A DNA stretch of 64,000 nucleotides from Actinomycetota bacterium (GCA_039028435.1 JBCCIC010000001.1:204240-268239); one strand, 5' to 3'. Shown: positions 11,112 through 33,573, counted from the first letter of the stretch. Program-made: numbers and translations. Notes: generated by a model from the sequence alone, not told the origin.

Positions 11112-11286
11112 TCCATCGACCTTGTCGGAGAGTTGTGCCGCCGGGATCACGGAAATCTCAAGTGAGAGAGAAATTCCATCGGCGGAACCGTAGCACGACT
11201 GCACACGTGTGCAACGCTTCGAACCCGTCTCACCGCATCACCGCCCGTGTGCCGCCGGCGCGGTGATCGAGGCGGCCGTTGAGCGA

Positions 11287-11979: not shown

Positions 11980-12012
11980 CTCGGCCTCCTGTGGTCGTCT
12001 TCGAGAGACAGT

Positions 12013-12045
12013 TTGAGCGTATGCTCAACTTAAGCAATCGCTCAA
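12013..12045. promoter_or_regulatory. Operator-like inverted repeat TTGAGC-N4-GCTCAA plus a third GCTCAA half-site
   Basis: It lies in an A/T-richer patch between the divergent DCC-family and rhodanese genes. TTGAGCGTATGCTCAA is at 12013-12028 and a further GCTCAA is at 12040-12045. Confidence 0.35.
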
Positions 12046-12114
12046 ACAATGTCAACCCCCGGCGGCGTGGGCGACCGTTCGGCCCAGCCCGGTGTCGGCC
12101 CGTAGGGTGTCGGC

Positions 12115-12507
12115 ATGGGGATCATGGAGCAGGCCGAGCAGGCGTTGACCGAGGTCGAGCGCGTCTCTGCCGAGGAGGCGGTCGCCCGCCGGGGCGACGA
12201 CAAACTCGTGTTCGTCGATGTGCGCGATATCCGGGAGGTCGAACAGACCGACACCATCGAGGGTTCGGTGCACGCGCCACGAGGAATGATCGAGTTCTGG
12301 TTCGATCCGGGCAGCCCGTATCACCGGGAGATGTATGCCGACCCGGACACGACGTTCGTGCTGTTCTGCAACGGCGACCCGCGGTCCGCCCTGTCCGCCA
12401 AGGCGTTGCAGGACCTCGGCATTGGCAACGTGGCGCAACTCGCCGGCGGGATGCCCGCATGGCGCGAAGCCGGCGGACCGACCGTGGAGAAGAAGCGCCG
12501 AAGCTGA
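12115..12507 (+). CDS. Rhodanese-domain sulfurtransferase
   Basis: VFVDVRDIREVE...GSVHAPRG...FVLFCNGDPRSALSAKAL...GGMPAWREAG matches a rhodanese fold with an active-site Cys loop. Confidence 0.75.
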   Translation: MGIMEQAEQALTEVERVSAEEAVARRGDDKLVFVDVRDIREVEQTDTIEGSVHAPRGMIEFWFDPGSPYHREMYADPDTTFVLFCNGDPRSALSAKALQDLGIGNVAQLAGGMPAWREAGGPTVEKKRRS

Positions 12508-14675: not shown

Positions 14676-14852
14676 TGTGCTCCCCACGGCCACAGTGACG
14701 GATCCACGGGCGGCGGGTCAGCGCGATGGTGCGCAGAACAACGATGCAGATTCGCCTGATGCGAAGCGGGCAACCGTTGCGCTTCGGTTTGCTCGATTCG
14801 GCGACAGCGCGACACGTTTTTGAGAGGTCAACCAGCTTCGTCGCTCAGGCCG

Positions 14853-15701
14853 TCACCGCGTCCGGTCCTCCCCGGCAGCGGACGAGACGGCTGCGGTCGA
14901 CCGGAACGCGCCGGGGGTCGTCCCGGACACTCGTTTGAACCAGCGTCCGAACTGACTTGCGTCGGCGAAGCCGAGGGCAACGGCAATGCTCGCCGCGCTG
15001 TCGCTCGTCTGGAGTAAGCGGCGGCGCGCCTCGGTCAGCGTCCGCTCGGCGATGAGATCCTTGGGGCTGTAGCCGAGGCGCTCCGCAGTGACGGCGCTGA
15101 GGTGCGCGGCACTCACGCCGAGCTGTTCAGCGTGGCTCCGGACCGAACGGCGATAGCCACCCTCGGCGTCGATCGATTCGAGGAAGGCATCGACCAGGTC
15201 GGCATCGCGCGACGTCGGATCCATCGCCGGAGCCCAGGTGCACAGCTGGACGACCAACGCGCTGACGTAGGCCGACGTCACGGTGCCGCCGGTGTCGTCT
15301 TCCTCGAATCGACGCTTGGCCGCGTAGGCCAACACGTCGATCGTCGACGCCTCGGAGTGCGGAATCGGGATCGGCCCGGCTCGCTCGAGATGGCGCACTT
15401 GGCGAGCGACTTCGTCGACCGAGCCCGACTTCAACCCGATGACCCACAGCGAGAGCGGACCGGTGACCAGCCATCGATGGAGCGCTCCCGCCGGCACGAC
15501 GAACGCGGCGGGAGCGTCGAACTCGATGCTGCGATCATCGACCTCGAGTACCCCGGACCCGTCGATGAGATACAGCTCCGGGTGGGGGTGCCGGTGCAGA
15601 TCGGTGACGATCGGCGGCGTTGTGTCCATGTCCGCCCACGTCGCGCTCCCAACGTAGATCGGCAGGAACGGGAACCCGTAGGACGGCACCTCGGTTGCCA
15701 C
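14853..15701 (-). CDS. AraC-family transcriptional regulator with an N-terminal cupin domain
   Basis: C-terminal double HTH: SVRSHAEQLGVSAAHLSAVTAERLGYSPKDLI...SIAVALGFADASQFGRWFKRVSGTTPGAFR. Confidence 0.85.
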   Translation of the reverse strand: MATEVPSYGFPFLPIYVGSATWADMDTTPPIVTDLHRHPHPELYLIDGSGVLEVDDRSIEFDAPAAFVVPAGALHRWLVTGPLSLWVIGLKSGSVDEVARQVRHLERAGPIPIPHSEASTIDVLAYAAKRRFEEDDTGGTVTSAYVSALVVQLCTWAPAMDPTSRDADLVDAFLESIDAEGGYRRSVRSHAEQLGVSAAHLSAVTAERLGYSPKDLIAERTLTEARRRLLQTSDSAASIAVALGFADASQFGRWFKRVSGTTPGAFRSTAAVSSAAGEDRTR

Positions 15702-15720
15702 GACAACCTTCTAGCAGAGG

Positions 15721-16593
15721 TCAGCGCGCCTCGACCCGCCGGAACCGCCGGGCTCCGGCGAGCATCATGCCGCCGCCGGCGAAGAGCGTTGCACCGACGA
15801 TGGCGAGCGCCGTCGAGGAGGAACCGGTGAACGCCAACTCATCGGGTGCACCTGGCGCGGGCTTGACGGACAGCGATGCGTAGCCACCGGCGATCGGGTA
15901 CGAACCGACGAAGTCTTGGTAGACGTCGCTCGCCGTGAAGTCGGCGTCGGTGGCGATGGCGGCGAACTTCTCCTGGCTCTCGTAGACCGTCATGCCGACG
16001 GCGAAGGGCTGCCCGGTCGCCGACACCCATTGGTACTCGGCGAGCCAGCCGTCCTGCTCGGCGAGTGCGGCGAGGTAGGCGTCGCGGGCGGTCTCGTAGG
16101 CGCCCTGGTCGAAGTCGTCGTAGGAGGACAGGTCACGCCAGGCGACCTCCAGGACCTGACCCGGCTCGGTCGCGATCCGGGTGATGTCGACGGGCGCTCC
16201 GTCAAGCGGCGTGAGCAGATCGAAGAACTCGCCTTCGAAGGTTGGGAAGTACGCCGAAGTGAGCGCTTCGTCGACCGACGATGCCGCGGTCTGGAACTCG
16301 GCGAGGGAGGTACCAGAGGTCATGCCGATGAAGACCGGCGGCTCCGGCTGGGAGAACGTCAGGAAGGAGATGAACGGCTCGAACTCGCGATCGGCGGTGA
16401 TGCCGGGCTGGGCTTCGAGGTCGGCGACGTACGCGTCACGCGTCGCTTCGAACGTCGCTTGGTCTGCCGTCACCTTGCGCACGACGAGCGCGGTGACCGG
16501 ACCATCGGCTTGGGCGTCAGCGCGGGGCCCGACGCCGATGACGAGCAAGGCGCCGAGCGCGAGGAGGACGATTTTGCGGAGGTGCTGGTGCAT
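15721..16593 (-). CDS. Secreted, probably sortase-anchored surface protein (LAFTG sorting signal)
   Basis: Signal peptide MHQHLRKIVLLALGALLVIGVGPRADA. The C-terminus has LAFTG (15823-15837), a hydrophobic stretch and then RRFRRVEAR. The mature part looks like two ABM/Dabb-like repeats. Confidence 0.65.
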   Translation of the reverse strand: MHQHLRKIVLLALGALLVIGVGPRADAQADGPVTALVVRKVTADQATFEATRDAYVADLEAQPGITADREFEPFISFLTFSQPEPPVFIGMTSGTSLAEFQTAASSVDEALTSAYFPTFEGEFFDLLTPLDGAPVDITRIATEPGQVLEVAWRDLSSYDDFDQGAYETARDAYLAALAEQDGWLAEYQWVSATGQPFAVGMTVYESQEKFAAIATDADFTASDVYQDFVGSYPIAGGYASLSVKPAPGAPDELAFTGSSSTALAIVGATLFAGGGMMLAGARRFRRVEAR

Positions 16594-16755
16594 GCACCAA
16601 CCGTGCACGTGGTCGGCCACCGGCACATGAGCGAGACCTCACGAAACGTGGACGATCGGACGAACGGGATCGTTGAATTCACCTGCGCATCGAGTCACGG
16701 CCAGGCTCCGACGCCGCTTGATCGACCGAGGCGACTTCGGTGCAACGACGTTTCG

Positions 16756-19700
16756 TCAGCCCGGATCCTCGACGCGGCCGGCTTCGATCTGCTCGTCGGT
16801 CGCATCGGGACCGGGCCAGCAGCGGTTGTCCTCGAGCAGGATTTCCCACGGGTCACACTCCGGGCCGTCACCGAAGTCCGCTGCGACGACCCCTGGCCCC
16901 ACGCACCAATCCGCTTCGACGAAGCCGGCGACGCATCGGGCGATGATCAGTGCGTCGACGATGTCGGCTCGACCGTCGTCGTTCACGTCGGCGCCGAGCG
17001 TGCTGATCGCATCGCTGCCCTGCTGCGCCCCGACGCCGCACAACAGCTCGCCCGGCCGGACGGCCACCTCGAACTGCGCCGTGACCATGGCGTCGACGAT
17101 GTCCACCTCCCCGCTGCAGTCGGCGTCACCCACGATGGTCGCGTCCACCACGTTCGGGGGCACGACGGGGCTGGCGACGAAGCCGATCGTCACGTCGCCC
17201 GCAACGTCCTGCACCACGTCGGTCGGAGCGACCTCGAACCCCGGTTGTGGATCGACCATTGCCGTGACGGAACACCCCTCGTACAACTCGAACGAGAAGC
17301 TCCCGCCGCCGGCGGCGACGAGGCCGGCGATCTCGACGATGCCCGGGTTGGCGATGAAACACGGCCTCGCCGCGCTGGCCCGAACTGACCAGTCGGCGTT
17401 CGGCGTCCCGTCGGCGACGTCGACGCTGATGGTGACGGTGCGCTCCGAGACCTCGAACGACCCGGCATCGCAGCCGATCGCCCCGGCTGGCGTGCGCGGC
17501 TCGCCTCGCTGGTCCGACGTCAGGGCGCCGTCATTGGACAGCGCAATCGGCACGTCGGTGCAGGTGCCGGCGCCGAACGCGGGCGAATCCACCGTGATGG
17601 CCCGAGTCTCGACACAGCCGAAGTCGATGGTGCTCGGTTGCCCGGCGGCACCGGCGACGAACCCGACCGCCTGTTCCGCACCGCACCCGTTGTCCGCCAA
17701 CGGCGCGAGCGTTGCATCGCCGCCGCCGAAGCACGACCCGACGTTCGCGCCTTCGTCATCGATCGCACCACACGCGCCGTTGACCACGCTCGAAACGACG
17801 TCGACATTTGCGGCCACCGAGTCGATCGCCGTCTGGCCGCCGTCAAGCGTCGAGTTGGCGATCGAGAGGCTGACCAGATCGGCAACCACCACGTTCGTGT
17901 CGTTGCTGAGCGTCGAATTCGTGATCACGGACCGAGCGGCGTTCGTTCCCACGCTGACACCGACCGGCGCACCCTCGATCGTCGACCCCCTGAGGAGGAG
18001 CGATGCGCCCGGACTCCCGAGCGTGGCACCGGCGACCGAGGCATCACGAATCGTCGTGTTCCGGATCACGACCCGCGACAGCGCCGAGCTCACGCCCGTG
18101 TGGACATTGCTGATCGTCGAGGAGTCGACGGTGACCTGCGCCTGGGGGAAGACCCGAACGCCGAAGTTGACGTCGTCGAAGAACGACCGCTCGATCAGCA
18201 CCGTGGTTCCCGAACCGAAGTCCTCCGCCCTGACGGCGGTGGTGGCTGCGCCGACGATGACCACTTCGGAGATGACCACGTCGCCTTCGTCGACCACGAT
18301 GCCCTCGTTCACATCGACGATCACGAGGTCCGTGATCGTCACCGGCCGCCGTGACTCGACGACGAGTCCGTCGATGCCCGCATCGCCGCTGAGCCGATGG
18401 CCATCGCCGTCGATCGTGAGTGCGAAGTCGGCGGCTGCCTGTGTGACGGTGGTCGGCGTCGCCACGAGCGCGATGTCGCCGGCGATGGTGATGGTGACGT
18501 CCGCAGCTGTCTCGGCCGCGTTGTAGCAGAAGATGGCCAGGTTCAAGTCGTCCTCGGTCGCCACCGTGGACGGTGCCTGTGCACAGTCGAATTCGTAGGC
18601 ACCCGCGTCGCAGCCGACCGCCCCCACCGGGGTTCGCGGGTCACCGCGCTGGTCCGTTGCCAGATCCTCGAGGACTTGCTCGCCGGCCTCGGTCAGACCA
18701 ACCGGCACCTGGCTGCACGTGCCGACTCCGAGGGCGGCCGAACCGGCGTCGATGGCCCGAGTCTCCACGCAGCCTGTGGTGATGGTGCTCGGCTCACCCG
18801 CAACGCCGGCGACGAAGCCCACCACCTGCTCGGTGACGCACCCGTTGTCCGCCAACGGGGCAAGCGTCGCATCGTCGCCGCCGAAGCATGAACCGACATT
18901 CGTACCATCGTCGCCCAGAGCGGCGCAGGTTCCATTCACCACGCTCGAGACGACGGTGACGTTCGCAGCCGGTGACACGATCGCCACGTCACCGCCTGCC
19001 AGCGACGAGTTGGCGATCGCCACCGAGCTCGGCTCGTCGACCGACACGTCGGTGTCGTTCTCCAGCGTCGAGTTCGTCACGACGATCAGTGCGCTTTCGC
19101 CGCGCACACCGACCGGCGCGCCGTCGATCGTCGAGGAGGCGACGACGACCGACGCACCGGGCGATCCAACCGCCACGCCGACCGACGCAGCGTCGCGGAC
19201 CGTCGAGTTCCTGATCTCGATCTCCGACTCGCTCGAGTCAACACCCGTCGTCGTGTTGACGATCGTCGAGGCGTCGACGAGGACCTCGGCTCCGAGCGCC
19301 CGAATGCCGACATCGGCGCCATCCACGAACGAGCGCTCGATGATCACCTGCCTCGCGCTGGCGTCAAAATTCTCGACGTCCAGAGCCGCGGCCTCGGCCC
19401 CGGTAACGACCACCTGCGAGATGGTGACCGCCGGCGAGATGATGACATCGCCGTCTTGAATCACGATGCCGCGCCGCACGTCGGAAACCACGAGATCCGT
19501 CACTGTCACCGGCACGCCCGACTGAATATCGAGTCCGTCGATGCCCGCGCCGCCGCTGAGGCGGTGACCCTGCCCGTCGATCGTCAGCTCGCTGCGGGCC
19601 GGATTCGTGGTGACAGCGATCGGTGTCTGGCCAAGTGCGATGTCGTTCGCCAGCGTGATCGTGTAGTCGCCTTCGGTCGTTGCGGCGTTGTAACAGAAGA

Positions 19701-21024
19701 TCGCCAGATTCAACTCGTCCTCGGTCGCCACCGTGAACGACAAGCGGTCGCAGTCGAAACCCTCGACTGCACCCGCGTCGCAACCGAGGGCGCCGGTCGG
19801 CGTGCGAGCAACACCGATCTGATCCAGCGTCAGGTCGCCGTTGCCGAACTGGTTCATGACCGGATCGAAGACCCGCACGCCCTCACAGTTGCCGCCGCCG
19901 AAGGCATCGCTCAGGCCGATCAGTTGATGCGTGTTGACACAGCCCCTGACGGGATTGCCATCGCCGTCGAGGCGAGCCTGATCGACGACACAGCCGTTGT
20001 CGGCCAGCGGGAGCAGCGGCACCGGTTCGCCGAAACAGCTTCCGACACTGGAGCCGATCTCGCTCTGGTCGAAGCTGCACGTGCCGTTCACCAGGGCCGA
20101 CTCGAGCTTGACGAAGCCGCTGGTTGCATCGACCGCTGCGGTGACATCCTCGACCGTCGAGTTGAACAGACTCACTTCCCCCGCCGACTGCAGTACGGCA
20201 GTCTCCGTGCCCGAGATCGTCGAATTCGACATGGTGACGGCACCCGGATCGAGACGGCTGTCGATGCCGACGGTGTTGTCGACAAAGGTCGACCCGACGA
20301 TGCGCACGCTCACGAGCGCCCCCGGCAGGTCATCGACCAGCACACCGGTCCCGTGGTCGGAGAGCGTGGTGTTGTCGACGACGGCGATCCCGTTGCGGAC
20401 GTCGATGCCGATCGAGGACCCGAGCCCGGCAACCGTCGAGCGAGCGATGTCGGTGGTGCCACTCGTCCGAATCCCGACCTCGGTGGCAACGATCGTCGAC
20501 AACGAGACGTCGAGCTCGGCGTCTTCGGACTCGGACTCGATCGCCGTTCCACCCGACACGATGTGGCTGTCGGTGATGAGCAGCTCACCGGTGTTCGAAA
20601 TGGCGACACTTCCCGCGGCACCTGCGCCGGTGATCTCGATCTCCTGCAGCACGACGATCGCATCAGCACCGACCGTGACGATCGGGACGACTTCGCTGCT
20701 CGTCATTGTGAACCCACCGGCACCTGAGATGGTCAGAGAGAAGCCGGACTCGGACTGGCTGATCGCCGGAAGACCCTCGGCCCCGAACGCAAGGTCTGCG
20801 GCGAGGTCGATGACGTAGTCGCCCGCATCGGCGGGGAGGGCCGCGTTGTAGCAGTCGACGGCTGCGTTGATCTCGGCGACGGTCGACACCGTCGTCCCCC
20901 CGTTCGCCACGAATGCCACACAACCCGCCTGCAACGCATCGGCGGGGCGAGCACCGCCGAGGAAGGCGAGGGAGAGGCCTGCCGCGACCAGCAGGACGAA
21001 CACGCAGGCGCGCCGATTGCTCAT
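16756..21024 (-). CDS. Giant secreted right-handed beta-helix repeat protein (three choice-of-anchor-Q-like modules) with a C-terminal dockerin-like domain
   Basis: 1422 aa with a signal peptide. There are three modules of roughly 380-390 aa. Each starts ...ATED(E/D)LNLAIFCYNAA...LTIDG.GHRLSG and ends LAPLADNGC...DQRG.PRTP.GA.GCDAG..E. The tail has two Ca-binding-loop-like segments, GDADCSGEVDIVDAMV and ADVNDDGRADIVDALI. Confidence 0.75.
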   Translation of the reverse strand: MSNRRACVFVLLVAAGLSLAFLGGARPADALQAGCVAFVANGGTTVSTVAEINAAVDCYNAALPADAGDYVIDLAADLAFGAEGLPAISQSESGFSLTISGAGGFTMTSSEVVPIVTVGADAIVVLQEIEITGAGAAGSVAISNTGELLITDSHIVSGGTAIESESEDAELDVSLSTIVATEVGIRTSGTTDIARSTVAGLGSSIGIDVRNGIAVVDNTTLSDHGTGVLVDDLPGALVSVRIVGSTFVDNTVGIDSRLDPGAVTMSNSTISGTETAVLQSAGEVSLFNSTVEDVTAAVDATSGFVKLESALVNGTCSFDQSEIGSSVGSCFGEPVPLLPLADNGCVVDQARLDGDGNPVRGCVNTHQLIGLSDAFGGGNCEGVRVFDPVMNQFGNGDLTLDQIGVARTPTGALGCDAGAVEGFDCDRLSFTVATEDELNLAIFCYNAATTEGDYTITLANDIALGQTPIAVTTNPARSELTIDGQGHRLSGGAGIDGLDIQSGVPVTVTDLVVSDVRRGIVIQDGDVIISPAVTISQVVVTGAEAAALDVENFDASARQVIIERSFVDGADVGIRALGAEVLVDASTIVNTTTGVDSSESEIEIRNSTVRDAASVGVAVGSPGASVVVASSTIDGAPVGVRGESALIVVTNSTLENDTDVSVDEPSSVAIANSSLAGGDVAIVSPAANVTVVSSVVNGTCAALGDDGTNVGSCFGGDDATLAPLADNGCVTEQVVGFVAGVAGEPSTITTGCVETRAIDAGSAALGVGTCSQVPVGLTEAGEQVLEDLATDQRGDPRTPVGAVGCDAGAYEFDCAQAPSTVATEDDLNLAIFCYNAAETAADVTITIAGDIALVATPTTVTQAAADFALTIDGDGHRLSGDAGIDGLVVESRRPVTITDLVIVDVNEGIVVDEGDVVISEVVIVGAATTAVRAEDFGSGTTVLIERSFFDDVNFGVRVFPQAQVTVDSSTISNVHTGVSSALSRVVIRNTTIRDASVAGATLGSPGASLLLRGSTIEGAPVGVSVGTNAARSVITNSTLSNDTNVVVADLVSLSIANSTLDGGQTAIDSVAANVDVVSSVVNGACGAIDDEGANVGSCFGGGDATLAPLADNGCGAEQAVGFVAGAAGQPSTIDFGCVETRAITVDSPAFGAGTCTDVPIALSNDGALTSDQRGEPRTPAGAIGCDAGSFEVSERTVTISVDVADGTPNADWSVRASAARPCFIANPGIVEIAGLVAAGGGSFSFELYEGCSVTAMVDPQPGFEVAPTDVVQDVAGDVTIGFVASPVVPPNVVDATIVGDADCSGEVDIVDAMVTAQFEVAVRPGELLCGVGAQQGSDAISTLGADVNDDGRADIVDALIIARCVAGFVEADWCVGPGVVAADFGDGPECDPWEILLEDNRCWPGPDATDEQIEAGRVEDPG

Positions 21025-21182
21025 GACGTCCCCGATCCCGCTACGACCCCCACCGAACGCTCTCCCGTCGTCGTGTTCCGCGGACGGACTCTAGATCACG
21101 TATGCGGGCCGGGTGACATGGCGCCGCGGGGCGCGAAACGACCCAGCTGGCGTCGAGGCTCAGCGCGCTGGACCCGACAGTT

Positions 21183-21221
21183 CGATGCGCAGGCCGGAGA
21201 TCGCCCGGCTGATCACGAGCC
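21183..21221 (-). pseudogene. Relic of an acyl-CoA dehydrogenase 3' end (13 codons, LVISRAISGLRIE)
   Basis: 21182-21220 matches 23651-23689, the true ACAD 3' end, at 34 of 39 nt. All 5 differences are synonymous in the ACAD frame. Confidence 0.6.
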
Positions 21222-21296
21222 GCGGCCCAAGCGACCACCAAATTGCGACTGTCCGGTTCGATATGCGATAGTCACTGAGGCGACAAAAGAGGCGAA

Positions 21297-23354
21297 ATGG
21301 TGGAAATCGACAAGCTTCGGGAATCCCTTACTCATCAGCTTGACCAAGCCATCGGCTGGTTCGAGGGATCTGACCGCAATCGCGAAACGACCGATGGTGA
21401 CGCAGCGGAGCAGCTGGCGCTCCTCAAGGCACGCGCAACATCGGTACTCCTGCGAATCGCTCTGCTAGGCGCATTCTCCTCGGGGAAGAGCTTCCTCGCC
21501 AACGGACTTCAGGGCTTCCTGCAGTACAAGGAGATTGAGGATGACGGGGAGATTCAGCCCAAGTTCATCGGGATTCTCCCGTCGCTTCCAGTCAGTACAA
21601 CGGCCGTCCCCACCACGCTTCAACCGGTCCACGAAGGCGCCGCGAAGAAGGACGACGACCTCGACTCCCCTCTCAGAGTGCGACTAATGGGCAACGAACG
21701 CTGGACCGAGGTTGGCGTCTCTTCGCCGGGCCGGATTCGCGCTTACACCACCTCGCACCCGAACTACATCGGTGAGCGAAAGTCGAAGCACGTCGAGCGT
21801 GAGGTTGCCGAGGCCGAGATTGACCTCCACGAGCCTGCGCTTCGCGCGCTCATCTACGACCTCCCGGGAACGAACTCCCCGAATCCCACCCACGACGCGA
21901 TCGTTCGACGGCGAGTGCAAGATGCTGACTGTTTCGTGTATGTCACCATGGCGACGTCAAGTCTTTCCGAATCGGACCTCGAGCTGATCCGATTCATGTT
22001 TGAGCATCACCGCGAGACCTCAAAGCCGGTGATCTGGGTAGTGACCGGAATCGACCTTGCCAACCAGCTCGGCCCCGATGATGAACCCGCGTGGAAGACC
22101 ACACTTGCCGAGAACAACCACTACCTGCGGGAGAACTTTGAGCAGGCTGTGAGCGACGCAAGTGGTACGACGTTCGTTGGTAGTGGCTTTGCAGGAGTCT
22201 CGCCGGCACTGGAGGCGCGAGCGCAGGCTGCGGAGGATCCAGCCCGCTCGGAACGGCTGCTTGCGCGCAGCGGAATGCGCGAACTCCGCTCGCGTATCGA
22301 GGAACTGATTGAAGGCGAGAGTGGGAGAGGGCACCTTCACCGAATCGCTCTGGAGGCGCTCGCCGTAGTCCACGGCCATCATGGTCGCCTGGAAGCCGAG
22401 CTGAACTCCCAGCGCATTCCGCACGAGCAGCTGGAGTCGGAGATCGCTCAGACGAAGTCTGAGATCTCAGCAACCAGGAAGCAAGGAGCGGACCTCCGGG
22501 CGATCCTGGAAGACCATCTGGGAGATGCCATCCGGCGGACCGCAGCACCGTTCGACAAAGGCACCGGGCTCAAAGGTCACCTCAAGACCGAACTCGCCTC
22601 AGTCATCGACACCACGAACTTCCTCAAGGAAGACGAGATCAACCGGTACGAACTCAAGCTGCAAGAGGCGACGAGCGCTTGGCTCAAGCGGAAGGGGAAT
22701 CCCGGCCAGCTGTGGGAGCGGGAGGTTCGCGACTTCCGACGAACCGCGAATCGCGAGCTCAGCGCGCGGGTCGGCGACGCGACGGTCGGCCGCAAGTCGG
22801 CGCGAATCAACCTCAATGACCTGGATCAGCTACTGCAGATTGCCGAGGCCGCTCCCCCCGACCCGCAAACGGCCGAGCGCCTCCTGAAGTTCGCCAAGGA
22901 CGTTTCACCCTATGCCTCGGCAGGGCTAGCGGCAGCTGGGGTAACCACGGCTGTGGCTGCGCCCGTTGCAGCAATGGCTCTGTTGCCAGCAGCGGCGGCG
23001 GTCGGCATCGCAAGCATCTTCACGTTCCGGCGGAATCGCACCGACAAGATCACAGCGCAGGAAGCTCTGCGCCGGGTCGAGCGAGAACGGCTCTCAGATA
23101 TTGCTGAGCATGTCGCCCAATGGTTCATGGCTCAAGCGAGTGCAAACGGATTTGCGATCGTCGATGCGGCAGACGACAGGATGCAGGCACGGATCGCAGA
23201 TCTAGACAGTCATCGCAGGAAGCTCGTTTCGCGCTCGAAGCGCCCTGAACAACGCGAATCCAAAGCACATGTGGACTACCTCGAGGACCGCCACAGCGCC
23301 GGTCAGGACATCATCGATGCCCTTGCCGATATTGCACACGTGACCGAGAGCTAG
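21297..23354 (+). CDS. Dynamin-like GTPase (bacterial DLP), solitary copy
   Basis: 685 aa with G1 GAFSSGKS, G3 DLPG and a G4-like TGID. It has a long helical stalk and a hydrophobic paddle, AGLAAAGVTTAVAAPVAAMALLPAAAAVGIASIF. Eight of the first 20 codons end in A/T, against 0 of 20 for the DLP at 30203. Confidence 0.75.
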   Translation: MVEIDKLRESLTHQLDQAIGWFEGSDRNRETTDGDAAEQLALLKARATSVLLRIALLGAFSSGKSFLANGLQGFLQYKEIEDDGEIQPKFIGILPSLPVSTTAVPTTLQPVHEGAAKKDDDLDSPLRVRLMGNERWTEVGVSSPGRIRAYTTSHPNYIGERKSKHVEREVAEAEIDLHEPALRALIYDLPGTNSPNPTHDAIVRRRVQDADCFVYVTMATSSLSESDLELIRFMFEHHRETSKPVIWVVTGIDLANQLGPDDEPAWKTTLAENNHYLRENFEQAVSDASGTTFVGSGFAGVSPALEARAQAAEDPARSERLLARSGMRELRSRIEELIEGESGRGHLHRIALEALAVVHGHHGRLEAELNSQRIPHEQLESEIAQTKSEISATRKQGADLRAILEDHLGDAIRRTAAPFDKGTGLKGHLKTELASVIDTTNFLKEDEINRYELKLQEATSAWLKRKGNPGQLWEREVRDFRRTANRELSARVGDATVGRKSARINLNDLDQLLQIAEAAPPDPQTAERLLKFAKDVSPYASAGLAAAGVTTAVAAPVAAMALLPAAAAVGIASIFTFRRNRTDKITAQEALRRVERERLSDIAEHVAQWFMAQASANGFAIVDAADDRMQARIADLDSHRRKLVSRSKRPEQRESKAHVDYLEDRHSAGQDIIDALADIAHVTES

Positions 23355-23646
23355 CGCCTCGACCGTTCGTCCGCCGCAGCTCGCGAGAGAGGAACCACAC
23401 GCGTTCAACTTTCTGCGAGCAAGGCTCGATCGAGGCCATGGAAGATCGGGCAAGGCGCGTGCCGATCCCGGGGCCGACCGGATCGTCTCGCCGAGCGGGA
23501 TCCGCTGATCCTTGGTGGCGGCCAGCGGCCCTTTGACCCCGAACCGGTCGGTGCACCAGCGTCCGGCGGTCTCAGGATGATCGGTCGCGAATCCGGTAGG
23601 ACAGAACGCCACCAGACGCGGGGCACGTCGGTCTTCGTGCGGCGAG

Positions 23647-24861
23647 CTACTCGATCCTGAGCCCGGAGATGGCCCGGCTGATCACGAGCTGCTGGATCTG
23701 CTCGGTGCCTTCGAAGATGTCGTGGATCTTGGCGTCGCGGTGCCAGCGCTCGACCGGGTACTCGCGGGTGTAGCCGTATCCGCCGAGGATCTGGATCGCC
23801 CGCTCGGTGACCCAGGTCGCCACACGGCCGGCCTTCATCTTGGCCATCGAGCCTTCGGCGTTCTTGAACTGACGCTGCTTGCCGAGCCACGCGGCCCGCC
23901 AGATCATGCCGCGGGTCGCCTCGATCTCGGTCGCCATGTCGGCGAGCATGAAGGCGATCCCCTGGTTCATGATGATCGGCTTGCCGAACGCCTCGCGCTC
24001 CTTGGCGTAGTCGAGCGAGTACTCGAACGCCGCCCGAGCGATACCGAGCGCCTGTGCGCCGACGGCCGGACGAGTCGCCTCGAACGTCTGCATCGCCGCC
24101 TGGGCGTTGCCCTTCTCGCCTCGGCGCACGCGGGCCAGGCGCTCGTCGAGCTTCTCCTTGCCGCCGAGCAGGCAGCGGCCCGGAACACGTACGTCGTCGA
24201 GCACGACCTCGGCGGTGTGCGACGCACGGATGCCGTGCTTCTTGTACTTCTGCCCCTGGCTCAGACCCTTCGTCCCCGGCGGCACGACAAAGCTGGCGTG
24301 CCCCTTCGACCCCAGCTCGGGATCGACGACGGCGACGACCACGTGGATGTTGGCGATGCCGCCGTTGGTGATCCACGCCTTGGTGCCGTTGAGCACCCAC
24401 TCGTCGTTGGCCTCGTCGTAGACGGCGGAGGTGCGGTAGCCGCCGACGTCAGAACCGGCGTCGGGCTCCGACGCACAGAACGCACCGATCTGGATGTCCG
24501 ACGCATCGCCGTAGCACTGCGGCACCCACTCCATCACTTGCTCGCCGGTGCCGGACGATGCGATGCCGGCGGCGGCCAGACCCGAACCCATGAGCGCCAT
24601 GCCAATACCGGCGTCGCCCCAGAACATCTCCTCGAGCGCCACGACCATCGACAGTCCGGTCGGGTCGTTCATCATGAGCTCGGCCATGATCTCCCAGCCG
24701 TACAGGCCGATCTGTGCGGCCTCCTCGACGACCGGCCACGGGAACTCCTCGCGCTCGTCCCACTCCTCGGCGTTGGGTCGCATGACGTCTTCGGCGAAGC
24801 CGTGCACCCACTTCTGGAGCGTGAGCTGGTCCTCGTTGAGGGCGAGATTGAAGTCCGACAT
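23647..24861 (-). CDS. Acyl-CoA dehydrogenase
   Basis: 404 aa with typical ACAD blocks (GAFCASEPDAGSD, WITNGG, ...IFEGTEQIQQLVISRAISG). Confidence 0.9.
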   Translation of the reverse strand: MSDFNLALNEDQLTLQKWVHGFAEDVMRPNAEEWDEREEFPWPVVEEAAQIGLYGWEIMAELMMNDPTGLSMVVALEEMFWGDAGIGMALMGSGLAAAGIASSGTGEQVMEWVPQCYGDASDIQIGAFCASEPDAGSDVGGYRTSAVYDEANDEWVLNGTKAWITNGGIANIHVVVAVVDPELGSKGHASFVVPPGTKGLSQGQKYKKHGIRASHTAEVVLDDVRVPGRCLLGGKEKLDERLARVRRGEKGNAQAAMQTFEATRPAVGAQALGIARAAFEYSLDYAKEREAFGKPIIMNQGIAFMLADMATEIEATRGMIWRAAWLGKQRQFKNAEGSMAKMKAGRVATWVTERAIQILGGYGYTREYPVERWHRDAKIHDIFEGTEQIQQLVISRAISGLRIE

Positions 24862-25020: not shown

Positions 25021-25479
25021 TCAGGCCATCCAGCGGTCCATGGCGGGGAAGCGGCCGGGCGCCGTGAGCTGCTTCCACTCCAGCATCGGCACCCCCAGAT
25101 TGCCGCCTTCGGTGAAATGGTCCCGCAGCCATTCGGCGTCGCCGAGGTAGCCGTCGGAGTGGAACACGACGGCGGGGTCGAGCTCGAGTTCGACGGAAGC
25201 CGCGTAGGACCAGGCAATCGCGCCCATCTCGAAGCCGCCATCGGGACCGAAGTTGTCGTCGAGGTCGGCCCGCTCCAAGTCTGACAAGAGCGCGAGATGC
25301 CCGGCCTCGTGCAGCAGGTCACCCGGATACCGAAGACGTGCCGGGTCGTATGCGAGCACGCCTCCCCCGCCGGTCACCCCGGGCAGCACGGTGTCGTCGA
25401 CGAGTTCCCGCTCGACGACCTCGAAGCCGACATCTCGGAGGAAGCCGACGATCTGCGCGACCAGCGAGTCGTGGTCCAC
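25021..25479 (-). CDS. Hypothetical 152-aa protein with an HExxH motif
   Basis: YPGDLLHEAGHLALL. The GTG start directly abuts the stop of the upstream SDR gene (25479/25480). No family recognised. Confidence 0.5.
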   Translation of the reverse strand: MDHDSLVAQIVGFLRDVGFEVVERELVDDTVLPGVTGGGGVLAYDPARLRYPGDLLHEAGHLALLSDLERADLDDNFGPDGGFEMGAIAWSYAASVELELDPAVVFHSDGYLGDAEWLRDHFTEGGNLGVPMLEWKQLTAPGRFPAMDRWMA

Positions 25480-26412: not shown

Positions 26413-26723
26413 CAGGCGCCCGGGAGGACCGCCGAGCCGCTCACTTGAACCCAGCGTTTCCGAGGAACGAGGAAAGGCAGACTCATGGAAGGTGCCCGCC
26501 GGGGAGGACCGCCAGGTCCGAGGGTTGAACCCAGCGTTTCCGAGGAACGAGGCAGGCGGACTCATGGAAGGTGCCCGCCTGGGAGGACCGCCGAGCCGCT
26601 CACTTGGAACCAGCGTTTCCGAGGAACGAGGAAAGGCGGACTCGTGGAAGGTGCCCGCCGGGGCGGACCGCCAGGTCCGAGGGTTGGAACCAGCGTTTCC
26701 GAGGAACGAGGAAAGGCGGACTT
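26413..26723. repeat. Tandem repeat, about 3.9 copies of a 79-80 bp unit (alternating A/B variants)
   Basis: GGG(A/C)GGACCGCC starts at 26422, 26502, 26581 and 26661. Units 1 and 3 carry GAGCCGCTCACTT; units 2 and 4 carry AGGTCCGAGGGTT. Unit 1 matches unit 3 at 76 of 80 nt. The array is intergenic, between the divergent SDR gene and the acidic-protein operon. Confidence 0.9.
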
Positions 26724-26727
26724 CGCC

Positions 26728-26760
26728 GGGTGCGGGACGAAGGGGAACCATCCCGCACCC
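26728..26760. other. Perfect 10-bp-stem hairpin directly after the tandem repeat
   Basis: GGGTGCGGGA (26728-26737), a 13-nt loop, then TCCCGCACCC (26751-26760). No U-tract follows on either strand. Confidence 0.6.
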
Positions 26761-26999
26761 AGATCTGGAAGTCGTGGCGCCCCCGAGACGCCACGTGCTT
26801 TGCCTTTGCGATCACCATCATGGCGGCGCCATGTTTCGGGCATGTGAGCGGCGGGTTGCCATCGTGTTCGAGTGTTCCGACACCCGCCGCTCGCCCAGCA
26901 CCACTGCGACCGACGGCACATCCGCTGTGTGAGCTACCCCACACAAGCAGCCGAGCACGGGTGGTAGCTTCGCCTCGCCATGGGTATGGGAGGCAAGAC

Positions 27000-29900
27000 A
27001 TGAGCGATGCAGGTAGCGATGTGGGACCGGACGACTACCGGGGCCAGGACATCGACCCCGAGCAGTTCTCGATCGGGGATCACCTGGTCTATGACCGCGA
27101 GGCAGGCCTTTGGTATGACACCGAGGCTGGCACCCTGCACGAGAGCCGCACGTCGCCGCCGCTCGATCCCGACGACTACGAGGACGGCGTCGCCCTCAGC
27201 GACGACAGCCCGATCCTGGCGTTGTTCGACTTCGTGTTCCATCGAGGGGACGAACGCACCGCCGGCGAGGGAACCGATCCCCACTTCGACCTGGAAACCG
27301 GTCGCCTGGTCGACGCCGACGGCAACCTGCTCGCGGTCACCGAAGAACAGCAGGAGCAGCTCGTCTCCAGTGCCAACCAACAGGTCTTCACCGAACTCGG
27401 CATCGAGTCCGACGGGCACCAGTCAGTCGTCTTCGACCCGATCACCGGAAGATGGTACGACCAAGACGGCGCCCTCCTCGACGACGCGCCCAGCCCGACC
27501 ATTCAGATCGATGACGCCAACGCGTTCGCCGCCGCCAACGCCATTCTCGGCAACCACACCGGAGTGGATGGCGCGGAACAGGACCAGTTCCGCAGCTTCG
27601 GGGAAACCCTCGACTCGTTCGGCGACGCGGCACCCGACGGCCTGGTGTTCGACCTTCGAACCAACGCGTTCCACGCGGCCAACGTCGAGTCCGAGGAGTT
27701 TGAGCAAGCGGTCCAGGACCGTGTCGATGAGATCGGCCACCAGTTCGATGACGCGGAGCAAGCCCGCGAAGCGGCCACGCTCTCGGTGCTCGAAGAGACC
27801 CAGATCGGCGGCGGTTTCGCCAACCTCGAGGGCCATACGGTCAAGATCGAGATCGAAGATCCTCTGAATGACGACGTGCAGGTGCGCGAGGTCGACGTGA
27901 TCTTCAACACCGAGACCGGCGCCTTCTATCAGGAGCTCGGCGGCGAGCGTGTTTCGGAGACCATCCGGTTCACCGCCGGCAGCGAACTCGGCCAGCGCGT
28001 AGAGCAGCTCGGCCTCACCGACGGCACCGCAGACGGCGGCGCACTGACCGGCAACGACGAGTTCCACCTGGATCCTGACACCGGCGTCGCCCGGTTCGGC
28101 GATCAAGTTGCCGGTACGTTCGGCTCGCTCGACGACTCGGACCTGATCCGCCTCGACGCCGGCGGCTCGCTCGACAGTGCGGGGGACGAGGGTCAGGGAA
28201 TCCTCGCCGAGAATGTCCGGTATTTCGACCCCGAAACCGGTCGGGTCCTCGACTACCACGGCAATCCACTCCCGGAAACCGACGCCAACGCCGTCGTCTT
28301 CATCTCGCACGACAAGTTCAACGAACTCTTCCCCGACGCGAACGACGAGCTGGAGAGCCGCGAAGGGTACGTCGTCGACCTCCGCACCGGAGAACTGCGC
28401 CGTGACGAGGTCGAGCTCGCCGACGGCACGACCGTCACCCTGAGCGAGATCAGTACCCGCGACCTCGCGACCGATCCACGGCTGCGCCGTGACGGCGACG
28501 AAGTCGAGGCCGCGATGGAGGCCGCGAACGGCGGTGACGGTGGCCTGCTCGTGACCGATCGTGTCGTGGTCGACGAGTCGGCCGGCGTGGCCTTCAACGC
28601 CACCACCGGTGCGTTCTACGACGCCGAGACCGGCCAACAACTCGACGAACCGGTCGACCTCTCACCCGACAGCGCGATCCTCACCGAGCTCGCCGGTCAG
28701 CCACTACGACGCGCGCTCGACCTCGAAGGTGCTGGCAAACTTCAGATCGACCCGCAGTCACTTTCATTGACGGCGGGCGAAGGCGAGCACCTGCGCCTCG
28801 TGACGTCATTTGGCGACGGCACCGTCGTCACGACCCCTAGCGGCTCCTTCGACGAGGCGAGTGGACAGTTCTTCGACCATCACGGCAACCTCGACAACAA
28901 CCAGGACCGCTATGTCACGGTCGCCGAGCTGCTCGAGCAGGCGGAGCGAGACGGCAACGAGGCCCATGTACTCCAACAGCTCGGGGTCCTGGTCGACGAA
29001 CGCGGTGAACTCGACGTCGACCGGGCGACCTTGCCCGACGGCACCCCGGTGAGCGCCCTGGTGGTCGACCGTGCGTCGTTCGGCAGCGACGACGGCGTGC
29101 AGATCACGACGATCAATCCCGAGGAATGGGGCGTCGAGTACCGCAACTCCCCCGACGGGACCAGAGAGGTGATCTACATCGATCGAGCTACCGGTGAGCA
29201 GTACTCGCCGGATGAGTTCCAGCAGCAGGTCGAAGCGGACCTCATTGGTGAGGAGGCCTCGCCGCAGGACCCCGAGCCCGAGCAGCCGGCCGCCCCGCAA
29301 CCGCCGACGGCGGATGAGCAGCCCGAACCCGAACAACCCGCCGCCGAACAACCGGCACCCGAAACCGAACAACCCGAAACCGAACAACCGGCACCCGAAA
29401 CCGAACAACCAGCCGCCGAACAACCTGCACCCGAAGCCGAACAACCAGCCGCCGAACAACCTGCACCCGAAACCGAACAACCAGCCGCCGAACAACCTGC
29501 ACCCGAAACCGAACAACCCGAAACCGAACAACCAGCCGCCGAACAACCAGCCGCCGAGCCAACCGACTACTTCTCCGACGCCGTGCCCGCTACCGACAGC
29601 GATGGTGGCAGCGCCGGCTACTTCGACGACGGCGGTTCGACCTACTACGGCGAAGACAACAACGAGGGCTACTTCGACGACGGCGGTTCGACCTTCTACG
29701 GCGAAGACAACAACGAGGGCTACTTCGACGACGGCGGTTCGACCTACTTCGGCGAAGACAGCAACGAGGGCTACTTCTCCGACGCCGTGCCAGCTACCGA
29801 CCAAGCTGCCGGGTACGCCCCGGTCCCCGAGGCGCCCGCACCCGCGGCTTCTGCGACCCCGATACCCGAAGCCCCAGCCCCGACCGAGACTCCTGCGGCA

Positions 29901-30206
29901 GCCTCGGCGGCAGCGGAGGAAGCCGCGTTCGGTGCCGGAGCCCAGGCTGCGCCTGCGCCCGCGACCGACTTCGGTACCGGCGCTGATACGACCCAGCCCG
30001 TGCCGGCGGCAACGGTCGTCCACACCGAGACCTCGGGCATCCCGGTCGAGCAGCCCGCACCCGAACCGTTGCCGGTCGAGCCGGTGCCGATGGTCGAGGA
30101 GCCCGCGCTTCCGGTACTCGAAGAGCCCACACCGGTGCCTGACCTCGTCCCCGACGAACCGGTGCCGATGGATGATCCCGGCGACATGGGCGCCGCCGAA
30201 GGGTGA
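27000..30206 (+). CDS. Extremely acidic 1068-aa repeat protein with no signal peptide (first gene of the DLP operon)
   Basis: ATG at 27000 preceded by GGGAGG. There are about 10 copies of a (D/E)xx(T/S)Gxx(Y/F/L)Dxx(G) motif, for example PITGRWYDQDGALL and PETGRVLDYHGNPL. These are followed by (EQPAAEQPAPET)n, three copies of GYFDDGGSTYYGEDNNE, and a P/A/E-rich tail. The stop overlaps the next start (GTGA). Confidence 0.7.
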   Translation: MSDAGSDVGPDDYRGQDIDPEQFSIGDHLVYDREAGLWYDTEAGTLHESRTSPPLDPDDYEDGVALSDDSPILALFDFVFHRGDERTAGEGTDPHFDLETGRLVDADGNLLAVTEEQQEQLVSSANQQVFTELGIESDGHQSVVFDPITGRWYDQDGALLDDAPSPTIQIDDANAFAAANAILGNHTGVDGAEQDQFRSFGETLDSFGDAAPDGLVFDLRTNAFHAANVESEEFEQAVQDRVDEIGHQFDDAEQAREAATLSVLEETQIGGGFANLEGHTVKIEIEDPLNDDVQVREVDVIFNTETGAFYQELGGERVSETIRFTAGSELGQRVEQLGLTDGTADGGALTGNDEFHLDPDTGVARFGDQVAGTFGSLDDSDLIRLDAGGSLDSAGDEGQGILAENVRYFDPETGRVLDYHGNPLPETDANAVVFISHDKFNELFPDANDELESREGYVVDLRTGELRRDEVELADGTTVTLSEISTRDLATDPRLRRDGDEVEAAMEAANGGDGGLLVTDRVVVDESAGVAFNATTGAFYDAETGQQLDEPVDLSPDSAILTELAGQPLRRALDLEGAGKLQIDPQSLSLTAGEGEHLRLVTSFGDGTVVTTPSGSFDEASGQFFDHHGNLDNNQDRYVTVAELLEQAERDGNEAHVLQQLGVLVDERGELDVDRATLPDGTPVSALVVDRASFGSDDGVQITTINPEEWGVEYRNSPDGTREVIYIDRATGEQYSPDEFQQQVEADLIGEEASPQDPEPEQPAAPQPPTADEQPEPEQPAAEQPAPETEQPETEQPAPETEQPAAEQPAPEAEQPAAEQPAPETEQPAAEQPAPETEQPETEQPAAEQPAAEPTDYFSDAVPATDSDGGSAGYFDDGGSTYYGEDNNEGYFDDGGSTFYGEDNNEGYFDDGGSTYFGEDSNEGYFSDAVPATDQAAGYAPVPEAPAPAASATPIPEAPAPTETPAAASAAAEEAAFGAGAQAAPAPATDFGTGADTTQPVPAATVVHTETSGIPVEQPAPEPLPVEPVPMVEEPALPVLEEPTPVPDLVPDEPVPMDDPGDMGAAEG
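29616..29768 (+). repeat. Three copies of a 51-bp in-frame tandem repeat (GYFDDGGST(Y/F)(Y/F)GED(N/S)NE) inside the acidic protein gene
   Basis: Copies start at 29616, 29667 and 29718. An adjacent 36-bp ETEQPAAEQPAP array lies at about 29397-29505. Confidence 0.85.
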
Positions 30207-32065
30207 CGGACCAGGCCGCCGTCGACGCGTTCCGCGAGCGCGTCGTCTCCCTGCTCGACACCGGGCGGGCGGCCTGTCGCGGCTACGACCGCGAGGACCT
30301 GATCGCTGGCCTCGACGACGTCAACACCTCGGTCCTCGATCCGGCCACTCGGGTAGTGATCTGTGGCGAGTTCAAAAAGGCCAAGAGCTCGCTGGTCAAC
30401 TCGCTGCTCAAGACCGAGATCTGTCCCGTCGACGACGACATCGCCACCGCGGTGCCGACCAGCGTGGCGCGCGGCGAGACGCGGTTCGAAGCGGTCAGCC
30501 TCCCGAGCGGCGCGGCGTCGGAAGGCGCGGCCGGCGACGAGCCGATGCGCCGAGAGCTCCAGGGGCCGCATGTGCGCAGCGCGATCCTCGATCCGTTCTC
30601 ACTCGACCCACCGGCCGACCTGATCGAGGCAACGCTGCCGAGTGGCCTCCCGGACCTCGTGCTGATCGACACCCCCGGAACCGGCGGCCTCGGATCGGTG
30701 CAAGCGAAGGCCACGCTGGCGACGCTCCCCACGGCGCAGTCCGCGGTCTTCGTCAGCGACGCGTCGCAGGAGTACACCGAAGCGGAGCTGTCGTTCCTGC
30801 AGCGCTGCATCGAGCTGTGCCCCCAGGTGATCTGCGTGATGACGAAGATCGACCTCCACCCGCACTGGCGCACGATCCTTCAAGCCAACACCGAACACCT
30901 GGCCTCACTGGGCATCGAACTGGCGATCATGCCGGTGTCGTCACTCCTGTTCGGTGAAGGCCACCGCCACAAACTCAGCTCGATGATCGAGGAGTCGGGC
31001 ATACCGGCGTTGCTCACCCGGCTCGGGCGCGAGGTCGCCGCCGTCGAAGCTCGGCGGGTCTTTCGCGAGGCCCTCGAGGAGCTGCACCGGGTACTGCAAC
31101 TTCTGCGGGCCCCGTTCGACGCCGAGCGCACCGCGCTCACCGACCCGACGGATCGCGATCGCGCCCTTGCGGAGCTCGAAGCGGCCCAGGAACACGCGGC
31201 CTCGCTCCGGTCGGCCACGGCTCGCTGGCAGGTCATGCTCAACGATGGTGTGAGCGACCTCATGTCCGACGTCGACCACGACTTCCGCAACCGCATGCGC
31301 GACATCGGCGCCGAAGCGAACGCCGTGATCGACGAGGGAGCGCCGCTCGAGATCTGGTCCGAGTTCGCGCCCTGGTTCGAACAGCGGGTGGCCGACGAGA
31401 TCCTGCTCAACTTCGAACTGCTCTCCCAACGCGCCGAAGCCCTCAACGCCGAGGTCGGAGCGCTGTTCGCCGACGAAGGCGGAACCGTCACCGCGGAACT
31501 CGGCGTGTTCGACCCCACGCTCGCCATGGCGCGGGTCAGCGATCTGGACAATCCCGAGTTCTCGACTTCGTCGCGGTTCTCGAACACCATCGCCGGTTTG
31601 CGCGGCGGCCACTCCGGCATGTTCATGTTCCAGACGATCTCGGGCCTGGCGCTCGGTGCCGCGGCGATCACACCGGTCGGCGCGCCGATCGCGGCCGTGA
31701 CCGCGGTCGTTGCGCTCATCAGCGGGCGCAGCGCCGTCAAACAGGGCGCCGAACGCGAAGTCGCACAGCACCGAACGGCGGCCAAGGCTGCAATCCGTTC
31801 CTACACCGACGAGGTCACCTTCCGGATGGGCAAGGAGTTGCAGGCCACCATGCGAGCCGCCCAACGGATGATCCGCGACCACTACACCGTCCGGGCCGAG
31901 GAGCTCCACACCACCGGTGCACGGGCCATCGAGGCCGCCACCGCCGCGGCTCGATCCGCCGACCCCGCCGCAAACGCCGCCCGCGTCGCCGACATCGACG
32001 CCGAGCTCGGTCGTATCGGCGCTGCCGAAGTCGCAATCGCCACGCTCGACGAAGAGCTGCGATGA
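30203..32065 (+). CDS. Dynamin-like GTPase, IniA-like by size and position, with a degenerate Walker A
   Basis: 620 aa with G1 GEFKKAKS (Ala where GK[ST] normally has Gly), G3 DTPG and G4 TKID. Hydrophobic paddle: FMFQTISGLALGAAAITPVGAPIAAVTAVVALISG. The GTG start overlaps the upstream stop. Confidence 0.75.
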   Translation: MTDQAAVDAFRERVVSLLDTGRAACRGYDREDLIAGLDDVNTSVLDPATRVVICGEFKKAKSSLVNSLLKTEICPVDDDIATAVPTSVARGETRFEAVSLPSGAASEGAAGDEPMRRELQGPHVRSAILDPFSLDPPADLIEATLPSGLPDLVLIDTPGTGGLGSVQAKATLATLPTAQSAVFVSDASQEYTEAELSFLQRCIELCPQVICVMTKIDLHPHWRTILQANTEHLASLGIELAIMPVSSLLFGEGHRHKLSSMIEESGIPALLTRLGREVAAVEARRVFREALEELHRVLQLLRAPFDAERTALTDPTDRDRALAELEAAQEHAASLRSATARWQVMLNDGVSDLMSDVDHDFRNRMRDIGAEANAVIDEGAPLEIWSEFAPWFEQRVADEILLNFELLSQRAEALNAEVGALFADEGGTVTAELGVFDPTLAMARVSDLDNPEFSTSSRFSNTIAGLRGGHSGMFMFQTISGLALGAAAITPVGAPIAAVTAVVALISGRSAVKQGAEREVAQHRTAAKAAIRSYTDEVTFRMGKELQATMRAAQRMIRDHYTVRAEELHTTGARAIEAATAAARSADPAANAARVADIDAELGRIGAAEVAIATLDEELR

Positions 32066-32072
32066 GGCGGCG

Positions 32073-33563: not shown

Positions 33564-33573
33564 CAAGGCAGCT

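Follow-up and report, generated by a model that had tools for sequence, protein, structure and literature searches.

How does a lone gene for a dynamin-like GTPase, of foreign composition, come to lie between two copies of the end of another gene? The question is raised by a 64,000-nucleotide stretch of DNA from an Actinomycetota bacterium (GCA_039028435.1, JBCCIC010000001.1:204240-268239), referred to below as the window, in which an intact acyl-CoA dehydrogenase (ACAD) gene (23647-24861, minus strand) is followed by a solitary gene for a 685-aa bacterial dynamin-like GTPase (DLP; 21297-23354, plus strand) and, beyond it, by an orphan that duplicates the 3' end of the ACAD gene (21181-21223, minus strand). 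We consider it likely that the 2.5-kb segment 21181-23692, here called the islet, is what is left of a site-specific integrative element after decay, a remnant resembling the cis-mobilizable elements (CIMEs) of other bacteria. Such an element would integrate into the ACAD 3' end by means of an attachment (att) site that mimics the last ACAD codons. Recombination would rebuild an intact gene end (23647-23692) beside the element and leave a duplicate of it (21181-21223) at the far junction. The integrase and the mobilisation or transfer genes would then have been lost by deletion, so that one intact cargo gene, the DLP gene with its foreign composition, and 292 bp of unrecognisable sequence are left over. 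We infer, in other words, that the islet arrived by integration, that it once had an integrase and, likewise, which of the two repeat copies is of host origin.

The islet and its flanking repeats

The original prediction, made from the sequence of the window, pointed to two direct repeats, 21182-21220 and 23651-23689, which match at 34 of 39 nt and differ at five nucleotides, all synonymous. The repeat is real and longer than this: it covers 42 nt (21182-21223 against 23651-23692) with 36 matching positions, while the second-best match to the 42-mer within the window reaches 25/42 and the best one in 200 shuffles 28/42. A third copy of the ACAD end was not found in the window. Read on the minus strand, the two copies both give LVISRAISGLRIE, and the 13 codons that they share occupy 21181-21219 and 23650-23688. 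The differences amount to six nucleotides rather than five, as CGC/AGG accounts for two of them, and the GAA/GAG difference falls one base outside the two 39-nt intervals; yet they lie in five codons and all five codon differences are synonymous, as had been claimed.

The view that the right-hand copy is the true gene end and the left-hand one an orphan stood up equally well. The ACAD gene encodes a protein of 404 aa with the Pfam ACAD N, M and C domains, has a G+C content at third codon positions (GC3) of 0.92 and aligns with its Acidimicrobiia orthologues over residues 1-404 at 75-90% identity. Its closest matches, at 88-90% amino-acid identity, come from Ilumatobacter and uncultured Acidimicrobiales and, judged by this gene, the source organism belongs to the Acidimicrobiia. 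The true 3' end (23647-23692, minus strand), the repeat partner of 21182-21223, consists of the last 14 codons and a TAG stop codon and forms the attL-like near junction. The orphan, the attR-like far junction, sits 2.47 kb downstream of it in the sense of the ACAD gene and corresponds to the last 13-14 codons; it encodes RLVISRAISGLRIE and lacks a stop codon. Its homology to ACAD ends sharply on both sides, with no ACAD similarity past the edges: upstream, the orphan frame reads ...VAIWWSLGPR where the ACAD has ...FEGTEQIQQ and, downstream, LSGPAR* takes the place of the stop codon. The nucleotides concerned (21181-21160, minus strand) are GAA CTG TCG GGT CCA GCG CGC TGA, with no immediate stop.

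What the synonymous differences mean can be read from the orthologues. The orphan is 87-97% identical with the ACAD 3' ends of other Acidimicrobiia, and all ACAD orthologues that are readable to their end, except for one frameshifted copy, close with a conserved C-terminal peptide (mostly ...SG[LM]RIE) followed by a stop codon. Since this peptide is conserved, copies evolving within a working ACAD gene would differ at synonymous sites only, which agrees with the earlier proposal that both copies evolved as parts of functional genes. It would follow that one of them came with the element, because synonymous-only differences point to divergence inside working ACADs. Neutral decay of an orphan is unlikely to give six substitutions that are all synonymous; our own, very rough estimate is 0.27^6. 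As to which copy was imported, codon usage offers weak but consistent evidence. The only AGG codon of the gene, a codon that makes up 3.4% of host arginine codons, falls in the true ACAD end, where GGG occurs as well, and the codons of the orphan, CGC, GGC and CTG, are those typical of the host; this suggests that the end now joined to the ACAD is the imported copy, supplied by the element.

Between the repeat copies we found only the DLP gene and 292 bp, as had been noted from the start. The 73-nt spacer from the orphan to the DLP start codon (21224-21296) presumably holds the DLP promoter and has, upstream of the ATG, a GAGG motif for ribosome binding; it shows no match to the sigma-70 consensus and resembles neither the ACAD nor other elements' ends. 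The 292-bp stretch from the DLP stop to the ACAD stop (23355-23646) takes the position of the integrase gene of related elements, and nothing recognisable as a gene is left in it. A decayed-looking short open reading frame (ORF) had been reported to run downwards from 23612. The ORF does exist (23202-23612, minus strand), only it has no recognisable homologue: neither the ORF nor its in-frame upstream extension gave a Pfam or PHROGs match, permissive thresholds included, and a phmmer search with this region against 1.84 billion representatives returned two marginal, uninformative hits. No Rfam family, tRNA gene, terminator-like or promoter-like site was detected in scans of the islet region and the window. 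We therefore treat 23355-23646 as non-coding or decayed beyond recognition.

The foreign composition of the cargo was suspected because the DLP gene looked A/T-richer than its surroundings, with 8 of its first 20 codons ending in A/T, whereas the DLP gene at 30203 has 0 of 20. Sliding-window and codon-usage analyses corroborate this. The G+C content of the DLP gene is 0.613, compared with 0.673 ± 0.017 for 38 host genes, and is the lowest among 620 sliding windows of DLP length taken along the 64 kb; its GC3 of 0.704 (host 0.834 ± 0.034; z = -3.9) is the lowest of all genes in the window.

A recurrent insertion site in Acidimicrobiia

We compared the locus with 166 fetched loci, among them about 110 orthologous ACAD loci with at least 1 kb of downstream sequence. 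At approximately 30 of these 110 the end of the ACAD gene is occupied by an integrase gene after the stop codon, by a far orphan end, or by both, a result that strongly supports the original prediction of a foreign segment integrated at the ACAD 3' end. Orphan ACAD 3' ends are present at 12 loci other than the window (L035, L058 with three copies, L066, L069, L070, L073, L080, L138, L145, L147, L151 and L155), 0.9-9 kb downstream of an intact ACAD and in the same orientation. At L069, where it lies at 11339-12439, and at L058 the first gene past the ACAD stop encodes a tyrosine integrase (PF00589), and homologues of this integrase (44-100% identity) were found at 22 of the approximately 110 loci, 100-150 nt past the ACAD stop and on the same strand. 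Because integrase genes (22 loci) and orphan ends (12 loci) both occur there, we regard the ACAD 3' end as a recurrent attachment site for integrase-carrying elements. The layout of the window, i.e., intact ACAD, integrase position, cargo and orphan ACAD end, is the same as in the related elements.

Two of the elements, at L005 and L055, encode TrwC relaxase-helicases and are thus, by gene content, integrative mobilizable or conjugative elements. The cargo found at the ACAD site includes AbiEi/AbiEii, an Abi_2 protein (PD-T4-5 in PADLOC), Pnkp, an M78 peptidase, beta-lactamase-like proteins, a LysR/dioxygenase/M24 peptidase set and a 1244-aa glycine-rich protein. Small islets without an integrase, carrying one or a few cargo genes, were found at L035 (1.5 kb, one gene), L151 (0.9 kb), L073 (2.3 kb), L066 (3 kb) and L138. 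We also considered a derivation of the beta-lactamase-like cargo of L035 from that of L005 and rejected it, as the two are only 30% identical. In L058 (11212-20254), three successive orphans (14680-14818, 17211-17349 and 20116-20254), each of which includes the same 60-nt downstream hairpin, lie behind one integrase gene, an arrangement that shows three elements accreted in tandem at a single site.

The repeats at other loci mostly start at position -79 relative to the last sense codon, with further starts at -95, -86 and -57, and run to the stop codon or beyond. In L058, L066, L069, L070 and L073 the 30 nt ahead of the orphan hold a conserved element-end motif, roughly GTCACCAGCTGGACA...CGG.AG, a candidate arm-type binding site that the integrase may recognise; the equivalent segment of the window (21224-21253) bears only a weak resemblance to it. 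In L145, a different tyrosine integrase (10138-11487; 449 aa, PF00589) adjoins the far orphan rather than the intact ACAD, a placement that points to a second family of elements, arranged the other way round. The metagenomic contig L110, in turn, contains two full-length ACAD copies (3225-4442 and 9622-10851), 6.4 kb apart and each about 75% identical to the window ACAD, which represent either a gene duplication or an element carrying a whole ACAD.

While the hotspot is newly recognised, the mechanism of integration itself is conventional and of the textbook kind. The islet adds an example of accessory-gene acquisition in a poorly studied, mostly uncultured actinobacterial lineage, and the ACAD attachment site could serve for a systematic search for islands, with their cargo, in metagenome-assembled genomes of Acidimicrobiia.

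Origin of the islet

Several features expected of an integrative element are present at the locus: repeats of the target gene end on both flanks, an intact target gene and a foreign composition of the DNA between them. An adjacent integrase gene, found at 22 related loci, is absent. A CIME lacks genes for integration and transfer but keeps attL and attR; in the islet such genes are missing and both repeats are present, but the far copy is short, devoid of a stop codon and perhaps no longer functional as an att site. Elements with an integrase and with TrwC occupy the same site elsewhere and would be a conceivable source for such a derivative, whereas the islet has no residual homology to them.

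A number of results weigh against the derivation of the islet from an integrative element. No integrase, relaxase or recognisable remnant of either is present in the islet or elsewhere in the window, and tblastn with the integrases of the sister elements found nothing in the islet; the statement of the original prediction that no integrase remains thus holds for the whole 64 kb. Outside the 42 nt of the repeat, no DNA similarity links the islet to any of the elements sampled at the ACAD site. The repeat spans only positions -42 to -1, a boundary that we saw at no other locus. The 12 other loci have 14 orphans between them, each ended by a stop codon, so that the window orphan is the sole exception, and a host end that was simply displaced should carry one. 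Neither flank of the islet aligns downstream of the ACAD in 148 other loci above shuffled controls. Finally, no close relative was found in the collections, hence there is no empty site for comparison.

The search for such relatives was broad. A scan of genome contigs with the ACAD yielded 80 loci, none of which shares either neighbour gene, and the neighbours of the ACAD are shared by none of the 166 fetched loci. Metagenome scans with the N-terminus of the beta-helix gene on the far side of the orphan (16756-21024) found nothing, and those with the most lineage-specific 48 aa of the ACAD gave matches of at most 85% identity. Exact-protein look-ups with the ACAD and the beta-helix protein returned nothing, or the same organism only. 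The beta-helix gene and the gene upstream of the ACAD (25021-25479) have no close homologues. We also attempted to recognise the native repeat copy by homology of its flank; a match of 8 nt to L012 was put down to chance.

The short, stop-less orphan may be accounted for in three ways within the scheme of a decayed integrative element. Later deletions may have trimmed it on both sides, it may stem from a different element family with a shorter att site, or a second recombination may have taken place at the far att site.

It may also speak for a different history, which we regard as improbable, though less so than the two treated below. The islet could be a minimal satellite of att sites and one cargo gene that never had its own integrase and was moved in trans by an integrase encoded elsewhere in the genome and recognising the 42-bp core. 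Bounds of -42 to -1 do set its repeat apart from those of integrase-bearing elements (mostly -79), an integrase remnant is undetectable in it, and L035 (1.5 kb) and L151 (0.9 kb) are further tiny integrase-less islets at the ACAD site. However, the same -42 boundary recurs nowhere else, the 64-kb window offers no integrase, the stop-less orphan looks eroded, unlike a functional att site, and the homologues of the DLP at other loci are without such flanking repeats.

Far less probable still is that the orphan is the last trace of a decayed tandem ACAD paralogue, with the DLP gene an ordinary resident between the two. Tandem duplicates do occur in the group, as the two full-length ACADs of L110 illustrate. 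Yet homology in the window stops abruptly at both edges of the 42 nt and no degraded ACAD follows further upstream; a decaying pseudogene would not retain 13 codons with synonymous changes only, the DLP is foreign in composition and without close relatives, and the ACAD site has proved to be a hotspot of integration.

A chance match, or an assembly chimera of two organisms joined at the conserved ACAD segment, is the least probable reading, for although an ACAD 3' end that is 87-97% conserved across the order at the nucleotide level could mislead assemblers of mixed communities, and a contig of the Logan assembly of SRR22824298 ends within this segment, the 36/42 match exceeds all 200 shuffles, the identical runs in the repeat (at most 18 nt) are below typical assembly k-mer sizes, and that same contig is unbroken and 100% identical over 15653-23713, through the beta-helix gene, orphan, DLP, spacer and ACAD end, thereby spanning both junctions. 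The Logan contig comes from a separate, unitig-based assembly, which may share reads with that of the window; an assembly artefact is unlikely.

The dynamin-like protein

The cargo of the islet contains a Dynamin_N domain (PF00350, E=3e-11), and its P-loop GAFSSGKS (GxxxxGKS) and G3 motif DLPG are invariant across 31 aligned homologues. In an AlphaFold model of mean pLDDT 79, the part of low confidence comprises residues 514-584, the region of the membrane paddle in bacterial dynamin-like proteins (BDLPs), and a hydrophobic stretch in it (about 540-578) may correspond to that paddle. Foldseek matched the model with IniA (1e-14) and Nostoc BDLP (3e-14), as well as with Campylobacter DLP1/2, LeoA and mitofusins (range 1e-14 to 1e-9). 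Given the GTPase motifs and the modelled helical neck and trunk, we assign the protein to the BDLP/mitofusin class.

The DLP has no close relatives. The nearest homologue among 5.8 billion proteins searched is 38% identical, and others, 28-37% identical, are encoded by Streptomyces, Catenulispora, Pseudonocardiaceae and metagenomes. With the resident DLP at 30203 it shares 24% identity over the GTPase domain; on sequence grounds, the two host DLPs are not its paralogues. It is solitary in the window, as are its homologues in all eight neighbourhoods examined, and it was never found paired. Some of the homologues adjoin DDE transposase genes (L081, L171) or a resolvase gene (L167), and at L171 the neighbouring insertion sequence has 63-nt inverted repeats. 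Others have a bacterial gasdermin (bGSDM) and a CHAT protease (L086) or an ApeA-like HEPN protein (L081) in their vicinity, and the remaining contexts are unremarkable, e.g., Streptomyces metabolic genes. The idea of a self-contained, mobile single-gene DLP cassette, put forward in the original prediction, found no support in a search for the same cassette elsewhere, as the homologues at six loci are without comparable flanking direct repeats.

An anti-phage system with two dynamin-like genes, Eleos (LeoA/LeoBC), is known, which needs two adjacent DLPs (Millman et al., bioRxiv 10.1101/2022.05.11.491447). Eleos, Bacillus subtilis DynA and the window DLP are all BDLP-class GTPases. Like Eleos, the window DLP has a mobile or island-like location, and some of its homologues lie beside the bGSDM/CHAT or ApeA-like HEPN genes mentioned above. 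With PADLOC it gave weak full-length matches to LeoBC (47.6 bits) and LeoA (45.4 bits), models that the resident DLPs of the host match too, and with the NCBIfam LeoA model it scored 19.4 bits against a cut-off of 325. Membership in Eleos was consequently rejected: the gene is solitary, the NCBIfam threshold is far missed and, since Eleos needs two adjacent DLPs, the window DLP does not qualify.

As to its role, fold and neighbourhoods together indicate that the DLP is most likely a membrane-binding protein that remodels or repairs membranes at the expense of GTP, and it may shield the cell envelope from phage and other kinds of stress. Protecting the membrane or defending against phages would be a plausible function; the earlier suggestion that the gene could be of a defence type is weakly supported by the gene neighbourhoods. 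A wider and more tentative proposal, to which we give a rather low chance, is that the family of solitary DLPs of about 685 aa forms a stand-alone defence or envelope module, a one-gene counterpart of Eleos spread as mobile cargo, and that the ACAD 3' end is an undescribed, order-wide hotspot of Acidimicrobiia at which integrative mobilizable elements deposit accessory and defence genes. The stand-alone reading is prompted by the family being rare, single-gene and scattered in Actinomycetota, near transposase, resolvase, bGSDM/CHAT and ApeA-like genes. A rare single-gene DLP family on mobile DNA is a candidate for protection against phages or membrane stress by one DLP.

In its fold, the DLP comes closest to IniA and Nostoc BDLP (PDB 6J72 and 2J69), sharing a GTPase domain followed by long helical neck and trunk bundles in the AlphaFold model. 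Yet the sequence identity with both is only 12-15% and, whereas IniA is encoded in the iniBAC operon with IniC, the window DLP stands alone.

Relation to known integrative elements

The islet is closest in organisation to the elements inserted at the fda 3' end of Streptococcus thermophilus, where ICESt1/ICESt3, which are elements both integrative and conjugative (ICEs), and related CIMEs evolve by deletion and tandem accretion (PMC5704250). The same source covers the CIME concept, and accretion, for the decay of ICEs as well as integrative mobilizable elements (IMEs) at the 3' end of the gene that they target, a pattern that the ACAD-site loci follow. Common to both systems are site-specific insertion at the 3' end of a housekeeping gene that stays intact and direct repeats of the gene end. 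Also common, on the likely reading of the islet, are decayed derivatives that keep the att sites without integrase and transfer genes, and tandem arrays such as the three orphans of L058. Unlike ICESt1/ICESt3, the elements described here target an ACAD gene in Acidimicrobiia hosts, the far repeat of the islet is truncated and stop-less, and no functional partner element is seen in the window.

Sister elements at the ACAD site resemble IMEs in having a PF00589 integrase beside the att site and, in L005 and L055, a relaxase-helicase of the TrwC type, with variable cargo such as AbiE, the Abi_2/PD-T4-5 protein and Pnkp. The islet differs from IMEs in possessing neither integrase nor relaxase, and only the repeat DNA is common to it and the sister elements.

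A comparable arrangement of target gene, integrase, cargo and direct repeat characterises the tRNA-targeting islands and the actinomycete elements of the pSAM2/SLP1 type, in which the element replaces the 3' end that it displaces. The layout of the ACAD-site elements is the same, with the difference that the target here is protein-coding; it is for this reason that the repeat copies diverge at synonymous sites only.

Other features of the window

The gene upstream of the ACAD (25021-25479, minus strand) encodes a protein of 152 aa without a Pfam domain. Its more than 1000 homologues, all of at most 57% identity, come from Acidimicrobiia, Bacteroidota, Verrucomicrobiota and Gammaproteobacteria, and by these matches we ascribe it to a widespread, uncharacterised family of small proteins. 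Further along, at 26417-26722, there is a tandem array with an 80-nt unit (3.8 copies, 84% matches; 93% for the 159-nt double unit). The array is intergenic, lies upstream of an acidic 1211-aa ORF and the resident DLP operon, and gave no Rfam match.

The resident DLPs belong to a four-gene cluster (26571-35340) with host-like codon usage throughout. Its products are a long and very acidic repeat protein, whose (PEQPAAEQPAPETEQ)n and (GYFDDGGSTYYGEDNNE)x3 repeats lie at 29317-29784, a pair of adjacent dynamin-like GTPases (30203-32065 and about 32062-33563) and an ATPase resembling Hsp70/HscA (33574-35340).

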